In this document: positions 2,521 through 21,801 of the stretch, one piece after another
Layout of the letters: the number at the start of each line of letters is the position of its first letter
Position numbering within the stretch: position 1 is the stretch's first letter
Assembly (NCBI GenBank): GCA_016112465.1
Contig: JAEHON010000010.1
Span: forward strand, 42,133-75,781
From: Candidatus Saccharimonadota bacterium
Lineage (GTDB): Bacteria > Patescibacteriota > Saccharimonadia > Saccharimonadales > Saccharimonadaceae
DNA: 33,649 nt
Direction: 5' to 3'
Notes under the pieces: model-generated
Seen by the model: the letters and a program-made list of their open reading frames with translations, nothing else
What the model was told of the DNA's origin: nothing
Databases searched by the model: none
Program-made: the position numbers and the translations under genes

Positions 2521-2611
2521 CTTCCTATTGAGAAAGTGTTTTGTTAGAAAAATAACTCTATAAACCTAATCTAAACTGGATTTTAGGGGATTGTTGTGAT
2601 AGGATAAAAGA

Positions 2612-3018
2612 AGTCTGAAAGACAATCGCTTAGCTTACTAAGAGGAAAGTCCGGGCAGCACAGAACACAGTAGTCGTTAACGGCGACCGTTCGAACATTT
2701 AGAAGTGTAGCAATATACCGAAAAAATCTAAGAATAGGGAAAGTACCACAGAGACAATACCGCCTTCGGGTAAGGGTGAAAAGTGTGAGGTAAGAGCTCA
2801 CGGCGCGCTATGGTGACATAGGCGAGGGCAAACCCTACTGGCTGCAAGGAGTGCTAGAGAAACCTTTGTTCGAGGATGCACGCTCACCGCTTGAGTATTC
2901 TGGTAACAGAATATCTAGATAGATGATTGTCGGTCTACCTAAGGTCTCTTTCATTATGGTTATCTTGTGGTGAAGGAGTAGCTGATCGTAGATTACAGAA
3001 CCCGGCTTATCGAAGACT
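2612..3018 (+). ncRNA. rnpB: RNase P RNA (type A-like)
   Basis: GAGGAAAGTCCGGG and ACAGAACCCGGCTTA (P4), AGGGTGAAA, GCAAACCC, TAGATAGATG; P1 AGTCT/AGACT; P2 GACAATC/GATTGTC. Confidence 0.95.
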
Positions 3019-3046
3019 AAAAAAATAGGCTTTTGGCCTATTTTTT
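3019..3046. terminator. Bidirectional terminator between rnpB and rpmB
   Basis: A-tract-TAGGC TTTTG GCCTA-T-tract between convergent genes. Confidence 0.8.
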
Positions 3047-6294: not shown

Positions 6295-6328
6295 ATATCT
6301 TGCTTATGCTGGATATCTTGCTTATGCT
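6295..6328. repeat. Direct repeat pair ATATCTTGCTTATGCT
   Basis: Two exact 16-mers at 6295 and 6313, between the divergent comM and ssrA promoters. Confidence 0.8.
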
Positions 6329-6335
6329 CTATAAA

Positions 6336-6364
6336 TTGAAGATAAAAGAGAAATATGATAGAAT
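6336..6364 (+). promoter_or_regulatory. ssrA promoter
   Basis: TTGAAG-N17-TAGAAT with TG extension, 9 nt before the tmRNA 5' end. Confidence 0.7.
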
Positions 6365-6373
6365 ATTGGTATC

Positions 6374-6726
6374 GGGGCTGACAAAGCTTAGACGGATTAT
6401 TAACAGATATCAGGCATGACGATTGATACCGTAAGTATTGAATAAGTGAAGAAACAACTTCAAAGCACGTGCTTTACGCACCTGTTTACGCCTAATTATT
6501 TATAGGCCGGTTTAGATATAGTTTTCCGGATGATCTAAATTGTTATAAAATAGGAAATAGGGGTAGTCCATTGACGGGGACTACTTAGAAAAATTAGTCA
6601 TGACGACTAGTAGTTTTGTTCCGTTGCCGCTACTAGTGTAAGTCGAGATGAAACAAGGAACTATGCATGTAGAATGATATCATGGAGATTTTTCGGACCC
6701 GGAGGCAGTATCCGGCAGCTCCACCA
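6374..6726 (+). ncRNA. ssrA: tmRNA (one-piece); predicted tag (A)EETTSKHVLYAPVYA at 6448-6495
   Basis: Ala acceptor stem GGGGCTG/CAGCTCC-ACCA with G3.U; T-stem CCGGA/TCCGG; GCATG/CATGT helix; ATAAGT before the resume codon; 353 nt. Confidence 0.92.
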
Positions 6727-6740
6727 GAATTTAAAAATGA

Positions 6741-6760
6741 CCCCCTCTGGGGGATTTTTT
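6741..6760 (+). terminator. ssrA terminator
   Basis: CCCCC-TCT-GGGGG followed by a T-tract. Confidence 0.65.
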
Positions 6761-6830
6761 ATGACAGATGGCAGGAAAATATTCCACATGTGGAAAACAA
6801 AAAAACATAAAAATTGTATTCAAAAACATG

Positions 6831-6859
6831 TTGACATAAGCGATTTAGCGCGGTAATAT
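6831..6859 (+). promoter_or_regulatory. Sigma70 promoter with no downstream ORF
   Basis: TTGACA-N17-TAATAT, A-rich UP-like region upstream. Confidence 0.65.
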
Positions 6860-6864
6860 AGAGG

Positions 6865-6978
6865 TAGCTTTTGAATAAAAAAATTATTCAAAGCCAAAAA
6901 CAAACAATATAGCCAAAAAACTCCACACTCTATAAGAAAAGTCAGTATTCCTCGCAGTTTAGCTGACTTTTCTTTTTT
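6865..6978 (+). ncRNA. Candidate ~115 nt small RNA
   Basis: Promoter, 5' hairpin (6867-6894), C/A-rich unpaired linker, 13 bp terminator stem AAGAAAAGTCAGT/GCTGACTTTTCTT plus T-tract; no ATG ORF. Confidence 0.55.
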
Positions 6979-6990
6979 GGTATTTTTTCT

Positions 6991-7019
6991 AAAAAAGACT
7001 TTTGGATAGAAGTCTTTTT
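6991..7019. terminator. Second, bidirectional terminator-like hairpin
   Basis: AAAAAGACTTT-loop-GAAGTCTTTTT. Confidence 0.6.
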
Positions 7020-7589
7020 AATAATATTTGGGATTTTAGACTTGTTTGTATTTTGATGTCGTAGATCAATGATTGGCGGATAGTTGCAGGTAAGATTTAT
7101 TATGAATGGCAAACAAAAAACTGGGTTGAGCTGATTGTGCGGGGGCGCTGTGATAATATGTGGGGATGAAAAACAAATAATAGTTGAATAGGCTTTTTGA
7201 GTAAAATAAGCGTGCAAATAATAAGCAATAACGGAATGAAAATAAAAAATAAGCAAAGTATTATGGAAGAAGCTTTAGCTTACTTTTTTATAGGTTTATC
7301 TCTATAAAATTAATTGAAGTATAAACTGTTTATGTTATGAGCAGTGGTTGGATGAGTTTGAAATGATATTGGAAAAATATATAAAGAAGTAATAAGAGGT
7401 GCGAAGAAATATATCATGTAAAAGTATGGATGACCTACGTGGGGCTGGAATAGCCTTATATAGGAAATTGCGAAGGTGGGTGGTATCGCGGCCAGCTTTT
7501 TGCAGGATCTATAAGCTTATGGTAAATAAAGAATGGGCGTATTCTAGATGCTAAGAAACAATAAGTGGATGGCTTAATTAATATTGTAA

Positions 7590-7950
7590 ATGTCTATGTT
7601 TATCCGTAGTTTATGTTCAATCATAATTGAACTATGTTGCGGAATTTTTGAAAAATATTAGTTTCTCGTAAATGTTTGGTGTTCTATATTTTTTAGTGTT
7701 TTATATTTTTTGTATAGATCGCAATTTAAAAACTTGGATCCTCAAAAGAAGAGGGAAGCTAAATTAATGTAACAGTTGTAAAAAATAATAATTGTAAATT
7801 ACGGCTTATGTTGTAGTTTATGTAGATAAGAATTACAACAATATTAAAAATAATATAATATTGTTGTTATAAATACTACACTATTTGTAACGCAATTATT
7901 AACTATGTAACAGTTGTGATTGATAATAGATATTGCGTATGTTGTAATAA
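7590..7950. repeat. Cluster of operator-like direct and inverted repeats (TATGT/GTTGT boxes)
   Basis: ATGTAACAGTTGT x2 (7767, 7905); GTAGTTTATGT x2 (7606, 7813); TATGTTG x3 (7633, 7807, 7938); 12 bp inverted repeat 7835-7867. Confidence 0.55.
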
Positions 7951-7976
7951 TAACTATATAATTCCAGTAAAAATGC

Positions 7977-8005
7977 TTGCAATAATATAATGGTTATGTT
8001 AGTAT
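7977..8005 (+). promoter_or_regulatory. Sigma70 promoter of the candidate large RNA
   Basis: TTGCAA-N17-TAGTAT with TG extension; predicted start at ~8011 coincides with the first hairpin. Confidence 0.6.
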
Positions 8006-8010
8006 AAGAG

Positions 8011-8494
8011 TGTCGAAAGACAAACATAAAAATCAACAAATAAAAGGATTGTGAAATCAAATGTAAATTAAAAAGTTGGTTTTAAAGTCTTAATAATATG
8101 AAAATATAATTAAGACAAAAACTGTGGAGGGGAACAGAAAAACGGATGCCCCACTATACGTGGAGCGGTCAAAATCTAGGTGGAGATGGTTGCGGTATAT
8201 ATTTATTGTTTTAGCGCCGGATAACCACCCACCTGGATTCAGGATATAAAAGGGGAGAGCACATTATTTAGATATACCAGACGTCTGGGATATAGAGGTG
8301 TTTAGATTAATAAAATCGATAGAAAATTATATATGATGGTTGAGGCTGTCGCATATTTCTATAGCGATTTCTAGAATCCAATGAGCATCAGTTATTTATT
8401 GCTAAAACAATTGTACATTATTGCTTAAAATGAGCCCTGAAGTGATTTACAGATATGGATGGGGGATCACTCGAGAATAATATAAACACAGTTT
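8011..8494 (+). ncRNA. Candidate ~490 nt multi-helix non-coding RNA of unrecognised family
   Basis: About nine consecutive stems, three GNRA tetraloops, many G.U pairs, long-range closing stem AAACTGTG (8119)/CACAGTTT (8487), no ORF of 60 aa or more. Confidence 0.55.
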
Positions 8495-8638
8495 ATGACT
8501 AATTCGAGTTTTCTATTGCTGTTTATTTCTAGATTAACGGAAATATATAAAGAGGTTTTCGTAATGAAGAGGTGGTGGTTATTTTACTTTTTAGGGTTTT
8601 GAACAATTATTTTACATAAAATAGCGTATAATATTTTT

Positions 8639-8998
8639 ATGATTAATCGGCTTATTCTTATTTTGTCGTTGATTGTATTTGCTATTATCTTAGCTATTTT
8701 ATTTTTGACTTCGCCAGCAGTAATTGGACCGGTAGGGATTTTGTTTTTCTTTGTAATGGTCTATTTTTTATCGTTTGGTGTGGTTACTTTTTTTATGTAT
8801 TTTTTTGTTATGATCTTTTTTTCAAGAAAGAATATGATCAAAAAAGATTATATAAAATCTGGTATTATTGCAATATTGCCTATTACGGTTTTGGTATTGA
8901 TTGCGTCTGGAGTGCGAAATCCAGTGATTTTAGTGGCGGGACCACTTTTCTTGGTTAGCTTGAATGTATTTTTGTTTAGCAAAATTAATGAGAATTAG
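8639..8998 (+). CDS. Hypothetical four-TM membrane protein
   Basis: 119 aa, four hydrophobic segments, TATAAT 6 nt before ATG. Confidence 0.8.
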   Translation: MINRLILILSLIVFAIILAILFLTSPAVIGPVGILFFFVMVYFLSFGVVTFFMYFFVMIFFSRKNMIKKDYIKSGIIAILPITVLVLIASGVRNPVILVAGPLFLVSLNVFLFSKINEN

Positions 8999-9057
8999 GA
9001 TATTTTTTATTTGGCAAAAATCATTAAAACTCAAAGTGGATATGGTAAAATATTAGT

Positions 9058-9570
9058 ATGAATAATGGTAATGTTGGGCCAGGTCAAATGATGGGGCAGC
9101 GGAATAATTTTGAGGCGCAGAATTATACCCCTGAGTACAAAAATTTAGATCCAGCATTAACTAAGACCGAGAATTCTTTTGAGCAAAATATTGAACAAAA
9201 AGTTGAACAATTTTCTAAAAATGTGGATCGTGTAAATGAATCGACAAGAGATGCTTATGGAAATACTGCAATTTTGGGAAATGCCAGTATTAATGCAATG
9301 GGCTTTCAGCAGCAGCCGAGTGTGGGGACAGCACCATTAGGCGAGGTGGTTACATCAGAAACTTTACGTACAGATAAAAAAGAAGACGTTTTGGGAACTG
9401 ATTTGCCAAAGGCGAAGGATATCGATGGCTTGGAGCCGGAATTCGTGAAGGCAGTGGACTCAGTGATTGCTATAAAAGATCCCGTGAATAAATATAAAGG
9501 GATGCGTGTGCTCAAAAGAAGATTTTTGGAAGATAGGTATGGTCGAATATTGGGACAAGGAAATGGGTAG
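9058..9570 (+). CDS. Hypothetical protein
   Basis: 170 aa, N/Q-rich N-terminus, helical-looking C-terminus; ends 9 nt before the ATPase start. Confidence 0.75.
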   Translation: MNNGNVGPGQMMGQRNNFEAQNYTPEYKNLDPALTKTENSFEQNIEQKVEQFSKNVDRVNESTRDAYGNTAILGNASINAMGFQQQPSVGTAPLGEVVTSETLRTDKKEDVLGTDLPKAKDIDGLEPEFVKAVDSVIAIKDPVNKYKGMRVLKRRFLEDRYGRILGQGNG

Positions 9571-9579
9571 GAAAGAAAA

Positions 9580-12500
9580 ATGAACGGAAATCGAATAGAA
9601 GAATTGATCCAGGGTGGAGACCATCGAACCAATGATGAAGTTGAACAAAATAATTCTACATCCGAGAACAAGGTGAATAATAAGACTGCGGAAATAGCGC
9701 AACCTGAAATAAATAGGATGGTCCAGAAAAAAATGAGCCCAGGTATGGGTGTGGGGATATTAGCTTTTTTTGTAATTCTTTTGGTAATAACCGTTGTGAC
9801 GGTGAGATTTTTAAGAAAAAAACGTAAGGCAAAGGAATATGAGCGTTCACTAAAATTAATTCCTATGTTAATTCATTTGCCTCCATCAACAGATGATATT
9901 CAAGGTGGTGGTCGTGACGAGCGTGACGTTAATGATGAGGCGATCTCGCAGGCAACAATTATGTATACGATTATTTCCTCAACTTTGAAGAAGGAGGGAA
10001 TTAAGACGCATGTGTATGGACAGAAATATTTCTCATTTGAAATTGTGGCGGTTGATGGATTCGTTAAATATTATGCAGTGGTACCAGCAGTCCTAACCGA
10101 GACCGTCAAACAGGCAGTCCTGACATCCTATCCTACGGCTAGGTTGGAAGAGACTGATGTAGAAGATATTTTTAGTAGTGATGGGATGGATGAAACAACT
10201 AGTGCGCAGATAGCTAGTTTGGGTGTTGAAAATACGGTTTCTGGTGGCGAACTGGTGATGAAAAAAGAGGTTGAATATCCAATTATGACCTTCCAGGATA
10301 TGAAGTGGGATGCACAACTTGCTCTACTTAACGCGTTTTCAAAGGTAAAAAAAGGCGAGGGGATGGGGCTTCAGGTCATGTTTAGACCACTACCTTCTAG
10401 TTGGACAAAAAACGCAGAACAAAAAATTAAGAATATTAAATCTGGTAAGAAAAGTTGGGGAAGTGGTGGCACTTATTTACCGCTCCGAGTACTAAATTTA
10501 TTTCTAGATGTACTCAAAGCTCCATTTGAAGTGCCAGATGAACACAAATATGACAAAAATGAACAAGAAAAAGAAGAATTAACGCAAAAGAAACAGGAAG
10601 AGATTCAGGCAATTGATAATAAGTCAAAATATCCAGCTTTTGAATGTTTAATCCGAATTGTGGCTCACTCAAGCTCAAAGGCGCGTAGTGAAGGGCTGGT
10701 TGGCGGTGTAGTTGCAGCATTCTCCCAGTTTGATTCGCCAAATTCAAATGGTTTTAAATACGATTTGAATAAAAAAGTTGATCAGTTGGTAACAGACTAC
10801 ATTTTTAGGTTTTTCCCAATTTCGAATAAAAAAATTGTTCTAAATACTCAAGAGTTAGCATCGATTTTTCATTTACCATCTCAGGCTTCAATTCCATCAA
10901 GTGGCGTTGAAAGGCAAATGACAAAACAGGTCGATGGCCCGACTGCTTTAATCACTGATGGTGTTTTGATCGGGAATAACGTCTATCGTGGTGCTATAAA
11001 AGAGATTAGACTAAGTGTTAACGACCGCAGGCGTCACATGTACGTAATTGGTTCTTCTGGTATGGGTAAATCTGTATTTTTGAAGAATATTGCATACCAG
11101 GATATGTTAGCTGGGAAGGGTTTTTGTTTTATTGATCCACATGGAGACGTAACGGAAGAGCTGCTTTCGATGGTACCAGAGAATCGAATTGATGATGTGA
11201 TTTATTTTGATCCTTCAGATATGGAATTCCCAATCGGAATGAATATGTTGGAGGCAAAGACGCCTGAAGAGAAAGATTTTATCGTACAAGAGGGGATTAA
11301 TATGCTTTACTCACTTTATGACCCTGGACATACTGGTATTTTTGGTCCGCGCGGTGAGCAGATGTTTAGGAATGCGGCGCTACTTCTGATGAGCGATCCG
11401 AAGGGGGCGACCTTCTTGGATATTCCAAGTCCTTTTATCAATGCAGATTTGGTGATGGATAAATTGAAGTATGTAACAGATAGAGATCTGTACGATTACT
11501 GGACTAAGGAATTTCCAGCTTCACAGAAGTCAAATGATGCAGGTGAAGTGATCACGTGGTTTGCTTCAAAATGGAGTCCGTTTAAGCAAAATACAATGAT
11601 GAAGCGGGTGCTTGGTCAGGTAAAATCGGGCTTTAATATTCGCGAAATTATGGATCAGCAGAAGATTTTACTGGTTAACCTTTCGAAAGGTAAACTTGGT
11701 GAGCTTAACTCAAAACTTCTTGGTATGATTTTCGTAATGAAATTCCAGACTGCCGCTATGTCGCGTGTGGATACACCAGAGAATGATCGTAAAGATTTTT
11801 GTCTATTTGTGGATGAGTTCCAGAACTTTTCAACAGAATCATTTGAGTCAATTCTCTCTGAGGCTAGGAAATTCCGCCTGAATTTGATTGTGGCAAACCA
11901 GTTTATGACGCAGTTGACTGATAAGATTCGAGAAGGTGTATTAGGTAACGTAGGTACGATTGTAGCTGGCCGTGTTGGTGTAACAGATGCAGAAATGCTT
12001 GAAAAAGTATTCACGCCAGTTTTTAAGGCCGAAGATTTGCATAAACAGCCAAATTATCATGCAATTACAACGGTTTTGATGAATGGTATGCCGTCTTCGC
12101 CATTTACGATGGAGTTGTTGGCGCCAATCGGAAAAGAAGATCGCAATGTGTTTGAATCGCTCAGGGAATACTCTGCAAAGAAATACGGTCGTCCGGGGGC
12201 GGAAGTGGATAAAGAGATTGATCAGAGATTAAGTGTTAATGAAGGGGAAGATGACGATCAAGGTTTAGCTGGCGGTGATTTTGTTGAGAATGAGAATGGA
12301 ATAGGGATTGATCTTGGGGTGGCTAGAGTTCCTGCAGATCAGGCAATTCCAGGTTCAAGAGAAGCTGAGCGCTTAATTCAGCAGCAGCGAGCTGGGAGTG
12401 CTAATACACCTGAGCGAGAATTAACACTTGAGGAGATCGATGCGGAACTTGCAAGGATGTCGAATGAGGCTAATGAAGATTCTGCAAGGATGTCAAGTGA

Positions 12501-12636
12501 AGCTAATGAGGATCTTAGCATATCTCAGGATAATACTAACCAAAATGCGGGTCAGAATAGCTTAAAACAGGGATTAAACCTTCGTCATGGAAACAGCGGC
12601 AATACTCAGTCCGGTAATATGATTAGTTTACGATAG
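9580..12636 (+). CDS. Membrane-anchored VirB4/VirD4(TraG)-HerA-like P-loop ATPase, CPR type
   Basis: N-terminal TM helix plus basic patch; DRRRHMYVIGSSGMGKS (Walker A), IDPHGD, LFVDEFQNF (Walker B), LSEARKF, ANQ. Confidence 0.88.
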   Translation: MNGNRIEELIQGGDHRTNDEVEQNNSTSENKVNNKTAEIAQPEINRMVQKKMSPGMGVGILAFFVILLVITVVTVRFLRKKRKAKEYERSLKLIPMLIHLPPSTDDIQGGGRDERDVNDEAISQATIMYTIISSTLKKEGIKTHVYGQKYFSFEIVAVDGFVKYYAVVPAVLTETVKQAVLTSYPTARLEETDVEDIFSSDGMDETTSAQIASLGVENTVSGGELVMKKEVEYPIMTFQDMKWDAQLALLNAFSKVKKGEGMGLQVMFRPLPSSWTKNAEQKIKNIKSGKKSWGSGGTYLPLRVLNLFLDVLKAPFEVPDEHKYDKNEQEKEELTQKKQEEIQAIDNKSKYPAFECLIRIVAHSSSKARSEGLVGGVVAAFSQFDSPNSNGFKYDLNKKVDQLVTDYIFRFFPISNKKIVLNTQELASIFHLPSQASIPSSGVERQMTKQVDGPTALITDGVLIGNNVYRGAIKEIRLSVNDRRRHMYVIGSSGMGKSVFLKNIAYQDMLAGKGFCFIDPHGDVTEELLSMVPENRIDDVIYFDPSDMEFPIGMNMLEAKTPEEKDFIVQEGINMLYSLYDPGHTGIFGPRGEQMFRNAALLLMSDPKGATFLDIPSPFINADLVMDKLKYVTDRDLYDYWTKEFPASQKSNDAGEVITWFASKWSPFKQNTMMKRVLGQVKSGFNIREIMDQQKILLVNLSKGKLGELNSKLLGMIFVMKFQTAAMSRVDTPENDRKDFCLFVDEFQNFSTESFESILSEARKFRLNLIVANQFMTQLTDKIREGVLGNVGTIVAGRVGVTDAEMLEKVFTPVFKAEDLHKQPNYHAITTVLMNGMPSSPFTMELLAPIGKEDRNVFESLREYSAKKYGRPGAEVDKEIDQRLSVNEGEDDDQGLAGGDFVENENGIGIDLGVARVPADQAIPGSREAERLIQQQRAGSANTPERELTLEEIDAELARMSNEANEDSARMSSEANEDLSISQDNTNQNAGQNSLKQGLNLRHGNSGNTQSGNMISLR
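12451..12516 (+). repeat. 33 bp in-frame tandem duplication in the ATPase tail
   Basis: ARMSNEANEDS / ARMSSEANEDL. Confidence 0.8.

Positions 12637-20273: not shown

Positions 20274-21801
<1,528 letters not shown>

Follow-up and report, generated by a model that had tools for sequence, protein, structure and literature searches.

The stretch of DNA analysed here, referred to as the window, comprises 33,649 nucleotides (nt) of a contig from a Candidatus Saccharimonadota bacterium, and the element in question is a structured RNA encoded on its plus (+) strand, between the gene for transfer-messenger RNA (tmRNA) and that for a small membrane protein. A first-pass annotation, made from the letters alone, had described positions 7977–8494 as a promoter-driven RNA of about 490 nt with many helices and of no recognized family. 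All stems and promoter boxes listed in that annotation lie at the positions it gave. The locus holds no + strand open reading frame (ORF) longer than 41 amino acids (aa), and its G+C content rises to a peak of 0.45 at 8125–8274, against 0.20–0.25 at 7750–8124 just upstream. The principal elements are the following.

7977–7982 (+): −35 box TTGCAA; the nearest relatives have TTGATT at the same place
8000–8005 (+): −10 box TAGTAT, separated from the −35 box by a 17-nt spacer; identical in genomes G103 and G166, GATAGTAT in G116
8006 to about 8626 (+): the whole RNA gene, in its predicted extent
8147–8167 (+): core hairpin Pa, TGCCCCAC / GTGGAGCG; seven pairs, four of them changed on both sides, with 98.9% of cells paired in 44 sequences
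8165–8172 (+): single-stranded word GCGGTCAA, which reads GCGGUCAG in other families; invariant in 13 of 13 sequences
8173–8239 (+): long core hairpin, made of helices Pb (8173–8183/8229–8239, with the arms AATCTAGGTGG / CCACCTGGATT of the first-pass annotation, all letters present), Pc (8187–8191/8223–8227) and Pd (8193–8196/8216–8219), with a G.U pair at 8192/8222, a GA bulge at 8220–8221 and a loop at 8197–8215
8627–8632 (+): −10 box TATAAT, preceding a leaderless gene
8639–8998 (+): the leaderless gene, encoding a membrane protein of 119 aa; the same arrangement is found in the loci of the genus

The stretch is present once in its own assembly (718 kb, 85% complete). When 60 relatives were searched with BLAST, a 99% identical copy was found in one genome, G018, and about a dozen other genomes of the genus matched by an 85-nt piece only, at 70–77% identity, corresponding to window 8146–8232. 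The conserved core spans window 8147–8239 and is composed of a short hairpin, the word GCGGTCAA and a 67-nt hairpin. Placed side by side, the pieces from the genus revealed that the arms of the long hairpin vary in sequence and that their pairing is retained.

This impression was borne out by the analysis of covariation. RNAalifold, run on a structure-blind MAFFT alignment of 13 sequences, proposed 22 pairs, and compensatory changes occur in 11 of them. Pairs were then counted on a larger set, A4, in which 44 distinct sequences were aligned to the covariance model R2 described below, with its 24 pairs. Standard pairs occupy 91.9% of the cells of A4, compared with 68.0% when partners were shuffled, a level that none of 500 shuffles reached; the cells changed on both sides number 259 versus 86 in the shuffles, and the pairs changed on both sides 19 of 24 versus 16.8 (6 of 500 shuffles reach 19). 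When the partners were slid by one to three columns as a control, only 29–46% of the cells remained paired. In helix 3 (Pc/Pd), eight of the ten pairs are changed on both sides and 99.8% of the cells are paired. The letters GCGGTCA are present in all 44 rows of A4.

The strand of the RNA follows from the same alignment. The G.U pair in the long hairpin is invariant (44/44), and U.G pairs are frequent elsewhere; on the other strand these would be C-A mismatches, and we therefore assign the RNA to the + strand, as the first-pass annotation had done. Folding energy gives no such guidance. Positions 8005–8500 of the + strand fold at −114.4 kcal/mol, against −94.5 ± 5.6 kcal/mol in 100 dinucleotide shuffles (z = −3.55, with one shuffle of the 100 equally good), which is more stable than chance would give. 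The − strand of the same stretch yields a nearly equal z = −3.45. Because both values lie near −3.5, the strand is not set by folding energy.

The similar folding of the − strand might suggest a feature of the DNA itself, such as a protein-binding palindrome, the remnant of an integration beside tmRNA or a decayed gene, the more so as tmRNA genes are known to serve as integration sites and strains differ by the presence of the nearby stretch 6979–7993. We consider this scarcely credible. The invariant G.U and the U.G pairs would be mismatches in duplex DNA, the helices keep their pairing as the sequence changes, 20 of 20 loci from other families lie away from tmRNA, and no open frame is present.

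To follow the core beyond the BLAST matches, covariance models were employed. The first, R1, was built from the core alignment of 13 genus sequences and matched 134 of 151 genomes of the genus, among them 97 of the 101 that are at least 90% complete; most genomes had a single match. Across the order it matched 8 of 151 genomes, those of the genus included; the six weak matches outside the genus had the same architecture. This low yield is attributable to a model too specific to the genus, and R1 was replaced by R2, which was rebuilt from 31 sequences including the weak matches from outside the genus and to which helix Pb was added. R2 matched 116 of 151 genomes across the order, including 102 of the 130 of good quality, and 91 of 120 genera were represented; as with R1, most genomes had a single match. 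A sample of the class gave matches in 35 of 151 genomes, but in only 2 of the 105 that belong to other orders, and a sample of the phylum in 4 of 151, all from the same order. Over the full model length, the window copy reaches 93.1 bits with R1 and 83.8 bits with R2. It displays every element by which we define the family for working purposes: Pa, the word GCGGUCA, the long hairpin with its G.U pair and GA bulge, and a downstream gene (at 8639) for a four-helix protein. As weaker copies occur upstream of the same gene in other orders, as described below, the family probably spans the class and our models under-detect it.

Other families of the order have a short element of about 170–200 nt in all. 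From the 5′ end it consists of a TTGAC-type box, 17 nt, a TAnnnT box, a GTAAG..CTTAC hairpin with the A-rich loop AAAACAAAAA, a small CGG..CCG hairpin, the letters AUA, Pa (CGCUCUC..GAGAGCG), GGUCAGUCAA, the long hairpin and a CUCC word. The word after Pa is GCGGUCA(G/A) and is single-stranded; the loop of the long hairpin is AAUAGUAAU-like, and the G.U pair adjoins the GA bulge. At 22 of 30 other-family loci the core is followed by a G+C-rich hairpin and a T run, versus 12 of 30 on the reverse complement. Because most families of the order have it, this independent unit of 170–200 nt, with a sigma-70-type promoter and usually an intrinsic terminator, is taken as the ancestral form. Within the genus of the window the RNA has been enlarged to 400–900 nt in most members, and 100–480 nt of extra RNA, with no terminator, lie between core and gene.

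The window copy differs from most copies of its genus. In the loci of the genus an invariant 16-mer, TCTAGCCATAAATTAC, lies 140–800 nt upstream of the core, with at most three mismatches and mostly none. The exceptions are the window, G018, G103, G166 and G116, which form one subclade. A split RNA, with the 16-mer encoded elsewhere in the window genome, was considered and rejected, since only chance-level matches with three mismatches were found. In genus loci outside the subclade (L003, L005, L008, L014 and others), TCTAGCCATAAATTAC lies inside a GGTAATT/AATTACC helix, and between the 5′ hairpin and this module stands AAAGGA followed by an ORF of 4–12 codons rich in lysine and arginine (K/R). 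This mini-ORF was likewise set aside as the function of the RNA: its length and sequence are unconserved, other families lack it, and nothing in the window clearly corresponds to it. Most members of the genus have a G-rich motif, CTTGGGGG, after the core. Outside the core, the window copy contains the following segments.

8011–8022 (+): 5′ hairpin TGTC-GAAA-GACA; at the same place in three of three subclade relatives
8023–8083 (+): A/C-rich stretch and the helix AAAATCAAC / GTTGGTTTT (8029–8037 / 8075–8083), which encloses GATT-GTGA-AATC (8047–8058); nearly invariant in the subclade and so uninformative for pairing
8087–8116 (+): hairpin GTCTTAAT..GAAA..ATTAAGAC; hairpins of unrelated sequence stand at the same place in G103/G166 and in G116
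8119–8126 / 8487–8494 (+): long-range stem AAACTGTG / CACAGTTT; letters present
8122–8137 (+): small hairpin CTGT (8122–8125) / ACAG (8134–8137) with the loop GGAGGGGA; AGCT/AGCT in G103/G166 and TCGA/TCGA in G116
8250–8303 (+): AGGGGA (8251–8256), kept in the subclade, and the hairpin GAGCAC (8257–8262) / GTGTTT (8298–8303) with the inner CCAG-ACGT-CTGG (CCAG 8277–8280, CTGG 8285–8288)
8313–8325 / 8356–8370 (+): stem AAATCGATAGAAA / TTTCTAT..CGATTT; letters present
8317–8566 (+): private insertion of about 250 nt with predicted stems, found only in the window genome and G018 and absent from G103, G166 and G116
8382–8387 / 8423–8428 (+): stem TGAGCA / TGCTTA; letters present
8441–8447 / 8465–8471 (+): stem AGTGATT / GATCACT; letters present

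Comparison within the subclade supports several of these segments and alters the architecture proposed in the first-pass annotation. Since differing hairpins occupy the same place, the structure of 8087–8116 is kept and its sequence is not. The loop of the small hairpin 8122–8137 keeps GAGGGGA in the subclade relatives, and the inner hairpin at 8277–8288 is replaced by ATCTAG/CTAGAT in G103/G166 and by TTAGC/GCTAA in G116. An architecture of about 490 nt closed by the stem 8119–8126/8487–8494 found no support in this comparison: the local, covarying hairpin at 8122–8137 competes for the 5′ strand, and the 3′ partner sits in the block 8317–8566, private to the window genome and G018, which also holds the last three stems of the annotation; these stems, and the further TTCAGG/CCTGAA pair that the annotation proposed, are putative. 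By this comparison, the window copy is an expanded variant that lacks the 16-mer of the genus and carries a private 250-nt insertion.

The comparison with G018 also places the RNA gene apart from its surroundings. Over 7966–8638 the two copies differ at 7 of 673 positions (1.0%), and over the private insertion 8317–8566 at 3 of 250 (1.2%). The spacer upstream (6979–7965) differs at 145 of 987 positions (14.7%), the membrane-protein ORF at 49 of 350 (14.0%, 8639–8988) and the next ORF (9058–9570) at 38 of 513 (7.4%). The only other stretch that is equally conserved is part of the tmRNA gene (6486–6726), with 1 difference in 241 (0.4%). The whole gene in the window, insertion included, thus appears to be under unusual constraint.

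The promoter was supported by its conservation in relatives rather than by its match to the consensus. TTGCAA-N17-TAGTAT agrees with the consensus at 8 of 12 positions, and a simple promoter scan, which requires 9, leaves it unlisted. The boxes are nevertheless conserved in position among the relatives, as would be expected if the RNA has a promoter of its own, and relatives at the level of the order have a TTGAC-type box 17 nt from a TAnnnT box. From these boxes we infer a transcription start near 8010–8013, close to the 5′ hairpin. A hairpin of the form GTC-GARA/GAAT-GAC was found by regular expression in 7 of 13 genus loci, its counterpart in other families is the GTAAG..CTTAC hairpin with the A-rich loop, and an ACAAAAA-type motif recurs in the 5′ part of relatives. 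Among public sequencing runs, 15 were found to contain part of the stretch, one of them recorded as RNA. Over 6300–9600, this sole RNA library, a metatranscriptome, gave a single assembled contig of 200 nt at 7936–8134, tmRNA pieces from other organisms and nothing on the flanking protein genes. We take the contig as evidence neither for transcription nor against it.

The same runs inform on the DNA upstream of the promoter. A contig of another run joins 6978 to 7994, which identifies 6979–7993 as an indel between strains, and a third run has a different sequence before 7994. The strain that lacks 6979–7993 keeps TTGATT-N17-TAGTAT. In the window this stretch is an A+T-rich spacer of about 1 kb between tmRNA and the RNA gene, and it is there that the divergence from G018 given above was counted (6979–7965). 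A 104-aa ORF on the − strand (6942–7256) lies in the spacer region and has no Pfam match. The spacer may be the remnant of something integrated beside the tmRNA gene. A palindrome, GTTGTA-N5-TACAAC, was observed upstream of the RNA promoter in 36 of 57 loci compared with 8 of 57 control stretches. It is often duplicated, the two copies lying at a distance of about 59 nt, and a degenerate copy lies at window 7863–7879. It may be an operator for a regulator of the RNA.

The most consistent companion of the RNA is the gene downstream of it. Every genus locus listed has a gene of about 117 aa at this place, with a TATAAT-like box 6–7 nt before the ATG, and it is because of this short distance that we read the message as leaderless. 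At 29 of 31 loci of other families, an ORF of 111–132 aa follows on the same strand at a distance of up to about 100 nt, and 28 of the encoded products are strongly hydrophobic. The proteins of the genus and of the other families can be aligned as a single family of membrane proteins with four helices, in which the proline following the first helix is invariant. Pfam and NCBIfam searches placed the protein in no family, and its nearest clusters in a protein atlas are all annotated as hypothetical proteins of Candidatus Saccharimonadota. The protein family is present in single copy in 147 of 151 genomes of the class, and in 123 of 124 good ones.

This gene provided a way to look for the RNA where the filtered model had failed. 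From 20 R2-negative genomes, 16 of them from other orders and 4 from other genera of the family to which the window belongs, the 700–800 nt upstream of the gene were taken and searched with the filters off. R2 matched 11 of these 20 regions at E ≤ 1, eight of them at E < 0.05, and all 11 on the strand of the gene. The long hairpin recurs in these regions with its GCGC..GGCGG(A/U)UUU junction, and a terminator and a leaderless promoter come after it. In four related genera the long hairpin is shortened, and Pa and GCGGUCAG are kept. By comparison, tmRNA lies within 1.5 kb, in one orientation or the other, at 7 of the 12 genus loci, and at none of the 20 from other families. Across the lineages examined, the RNA is tied to the membrane-protein gene and not to tmRNA.

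Some features of the surrounding genes may be mentioned here. Both genes that follow the RNA (8627–8641 and 9044–9060) have a TGnTAnAAT-like −10 box 6–7 nt before the ATG and no Shine-Dalgarno sequence, as in relatives, and leaderless messages seem common in this lineage. Two genes downstream of the RNA, a 1018-aa protein (9580–12636, +) gives weak matches to the ATPase domains of type IV secretion coupling proteins (TrwB/TraG).

Such a tight positional link raises the possibility of a leader acting in cis, either like a riboswitch or like a protein-binding attenuator, in which the core would sense a ligand or protein and control passage through the terminator. In every lineage examined, the RNA lies directly upstream of the same gene and on its strand, and the other neighbours vary; the highly conserved nucleotides of junctions and loop resemble those of an aptamer; and a terminator-like hairpin separates core and gene in the 22 of 30 other-family loci counted above. 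The organization of the downstream gene argues in the opposite direction. In the genus and many other families its −10 box precedes the start codon by 6–7 nt, so that it would be transcribed without a leader, and in several lineages the terminator hairpin includes both this box and the start codon, which a read-through RNA would therefore conceal. The genus, moreover, has its 100–480 nt of additional RNA and no terminator in between, and no anti-terminator pairing was seen by eye in the loci of other families, where no systematic search was made. A leader would be recognized by the lack of a promoter between RNA and gene, and we did not observe this lack in the genus or in many other families, though a few loci leave no room for a promoter between terminator and ATG. 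We regard a cis-acting leader as unlikely. The first-pass annotation had come to a similar opinion from the −10 box of the next gene, and this box is indeed present (TATAAT, 8627–8632, before the ATG); what that annotation did not take into account, and what moderates its conclusion, is the position of the RNA directly upstream of one and the same gene everywhere examined.

The first-pass annotation had anticipated that no known family would be found, and a search against Rfam 15 (4227 models) agreed with it. At gathering scores, the window contains RNase P RNA (2610–3024), tmRNA (6374–6726), 16S ribosomal RNA (rRNA) and three transfer RNAs (tRNAs), and no match was obtained at the locus (7977–8494), at 12 genus loci or at 20 loci of other families. 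In a permissive E-value mode, the best match inside the locus, to a snoRNA model, reached 25.5 bits where the cut-off is 50, a chance level, and four relatives gave tmRNA only. OLE (RF01071), raiA, ROOL, GOLLD, HEARO and the riboswitch classes are all represented in Rfam, and none of them matches. A literature search, which left subscription journals, supplements and annotation records outside, found no description of the RNA. A preprint on the TM7x transcriptome states that that genome has no currently validated small RNAs (10.1101/2022.03.25.485537). Among the known RNAs of the window, the RNase P RNA spans 415 nt relative to a model of 367 positions, with a large insertion near its 3′ end, and the 16S rRNA (20274–21801) is followed by no 23S rRNA match within the window.

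Given that the RNA is single-copy and near-universal in its group, and that neither signal recognition particle (SRP) RNA nor 6S RNA was found in the genome, we considered that it might be a divergent form of one of these housekeeping RNAs, missed by Rfam. The SRP RNA models RF00169 and RF01854 match nowhere in the genome at E ≤ 10, and none of 31 relatives passes their cut-off. One relative, G038, has a weak SRP hit with a convincing helix-8 word, at a different locus that R1 does not match and that may be contamination; allowing one mismatch, this word is absent from 56 of 61 genomes. The core itself has no hairpin like helix 8, which in SRP RNA carries a GNAR-type tetraloop and is flanked by conserved internal loops; the loop of Pa is variable, without conserved internal loops. 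On the protein side, the M domain of Ffh (PF02978) was detected in none of 41 relatives and in none of the 151 class genomes, compared with 14 of 14 control genomes. The SRP GTPase domain gave generic P-loop matches in the 41 relatives, with one strong exception on a small contig of an incomplete genome; in the window genome, a profile search did not find this domain (PF00448), and tblastn with an FtsY-like fragment reached E = 0.19 at best. As for 6S RNA, RF00013 has no match in the genome at E ≤ 10, and the short forms of our RNA are a row of consecutive hairpins without a closing stem, not a rod with a central bubble. We thus rejected both identities, and a divergent housekeeping RNA of this kind is very improbable.

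These searches yielded an observation of separate interest. The SRP pathway is apparently missing from the whole class, with no M domain of Ffh, no SRP RNA above the cut-off and only generic GTPase hits. In the full-text literature, with supplements and subscription journals outside the search, no statement on the loss of SRP in Saccharibacteria was found.

A further alternative is a small RNA (sRNA) that acts in trans by base pairing through its unpaired words, namely CUCC, the A/C-rich 5′ loop and the G-rich motifs of the genus, with its position beside the membrane-protein gene merely inherited. Outside the genus the RNA has the size for this (170–200 nt), together with a promoter and terminator of its own, and GCGGUCAG, CUCC and ACAAAAA are conserved unpaired words. 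Base-pairing sRNAs, however, are rarely conserved in sequence and structure across an order, nor do they tend to grow structured expansions of hundreds of nucleotides, and the conserved parts of this RNA are mostly helices and junctions. We judge such a role improbable.

Taken together, we are highly confident that the locus holds a real, constrained RNA gene of a new family, and we assign a probability of roughly 0.55 to our explanation of window 8006 to about 8626 (+) as a whole. Regarding mechanism, we tentatively favour an RNA that stands alone and is linked to the membrane protein, a proposal that may well prove wrong. The RNA would be made as a separate, stable transcript, since the next gene has a leaderless promoter of its own. 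It would act as a folded, protein-binding RNA rather than as a message, because the conserved parts are helices, junctions and one loop, and because large expansions are tolerated as in housekeeping RNAs. By analogy with OLE RNA and its protein OapA, its partner would probably be the neighbouring four-helix membrane protein. A bolder extension, to which we give a very faint chance, is that the two form a membrane-bound ribonucleoprotein (RNP) peculiar to Saccharibacteria that takes over part of the work of the SRP; it would bring ribosomes or nascent membrane proteins to the membrane.

Several of our observations weigh against this explanation. Only 73.9% of the cells of helix 2 (Pb) are paired, although all seven of its pairs are changed on both sides; A4 was fitted to the model structure, which inflates the paired share, and the independent MAFFT result points the same way as A4. 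The low divergence from G018 could be mimicked by a recent recombination tract. No + strand terminator was found between 7850 and 8700. The contig of the RNA library begins about 70 nt before the predicted start, and carry-over of DNA is possible. The protein family, finally, is present in 147 of 151 class genomes, and the RNA, with the filtered model, in 35 of 151.

Saccharibacteria are ultra-small epibionts with genomes of 0.6–1 Mb and very little non-coding DNA. An RNA kept in single copy across at least an order, and probably the class, is likely to have a central role in these cells. The enlargement of a small RNA from 170 nt to more than 600 nt by lineage-specific segments is rare and offers a natural series for relating structure to function. 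The apparent lack of the SRP pathway in the class makes a membrane-linked RNA there worth attention, and cultivated strains exist.

Among known systems, OLE RNA offers the closest parallel. It is a large structured orphan RNA whose gene lies upstream of that for a small membrane protein, OapA, and it binds that protein at the membrane. Both are lineage-restricted orphan RNA genes directly upstream of a gene for a small multi-helix membrane protein. OLE RNA, however, measures about 600 nt and belongs to Firmicutes, whereas the RNA described here is ancestrally 170–200 nt long and saccharibacterial; it has no match to the OLE model, its membrane protein is in no Pfam or NCBIfam family, and the link between the two is a positional one. 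With raiA, ROOL, GOLLD and HEARO our RNA shares its discovery by conservation and covariation, a complex fold and the lack of a function at discovery. Those RNAs are patchy or tied to mobile elements, whereas the saccharibacterial RNA is single-copy, near-universal in its group and fixed in position.

In its occurrence as one near-ubiquitous copy, in being far better conserved than its neighbours and in its expansions, the RNA resembles SRP RNA, 6S RNA, tmRNA and RNase P RNA. The last two of these are nonetheless present elsewhere in the window, the features of SRP and 6S RNA are lacking, and, unlike the universal housekeeping RNAs, this one is limited to a single class with the present models. 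Riboswitches that act through terminators are similar in that a conserved fold is followed by a terminator-like hairpin upstream of one gene family, but here the downstream gene mostly has its own −10 box at a leaderless distance, and no Rfam riboswitch matches. The RNA is therefore new as a family and fits no curated one; as a lineage-restricted, orphan structured RNA, it has precedents.

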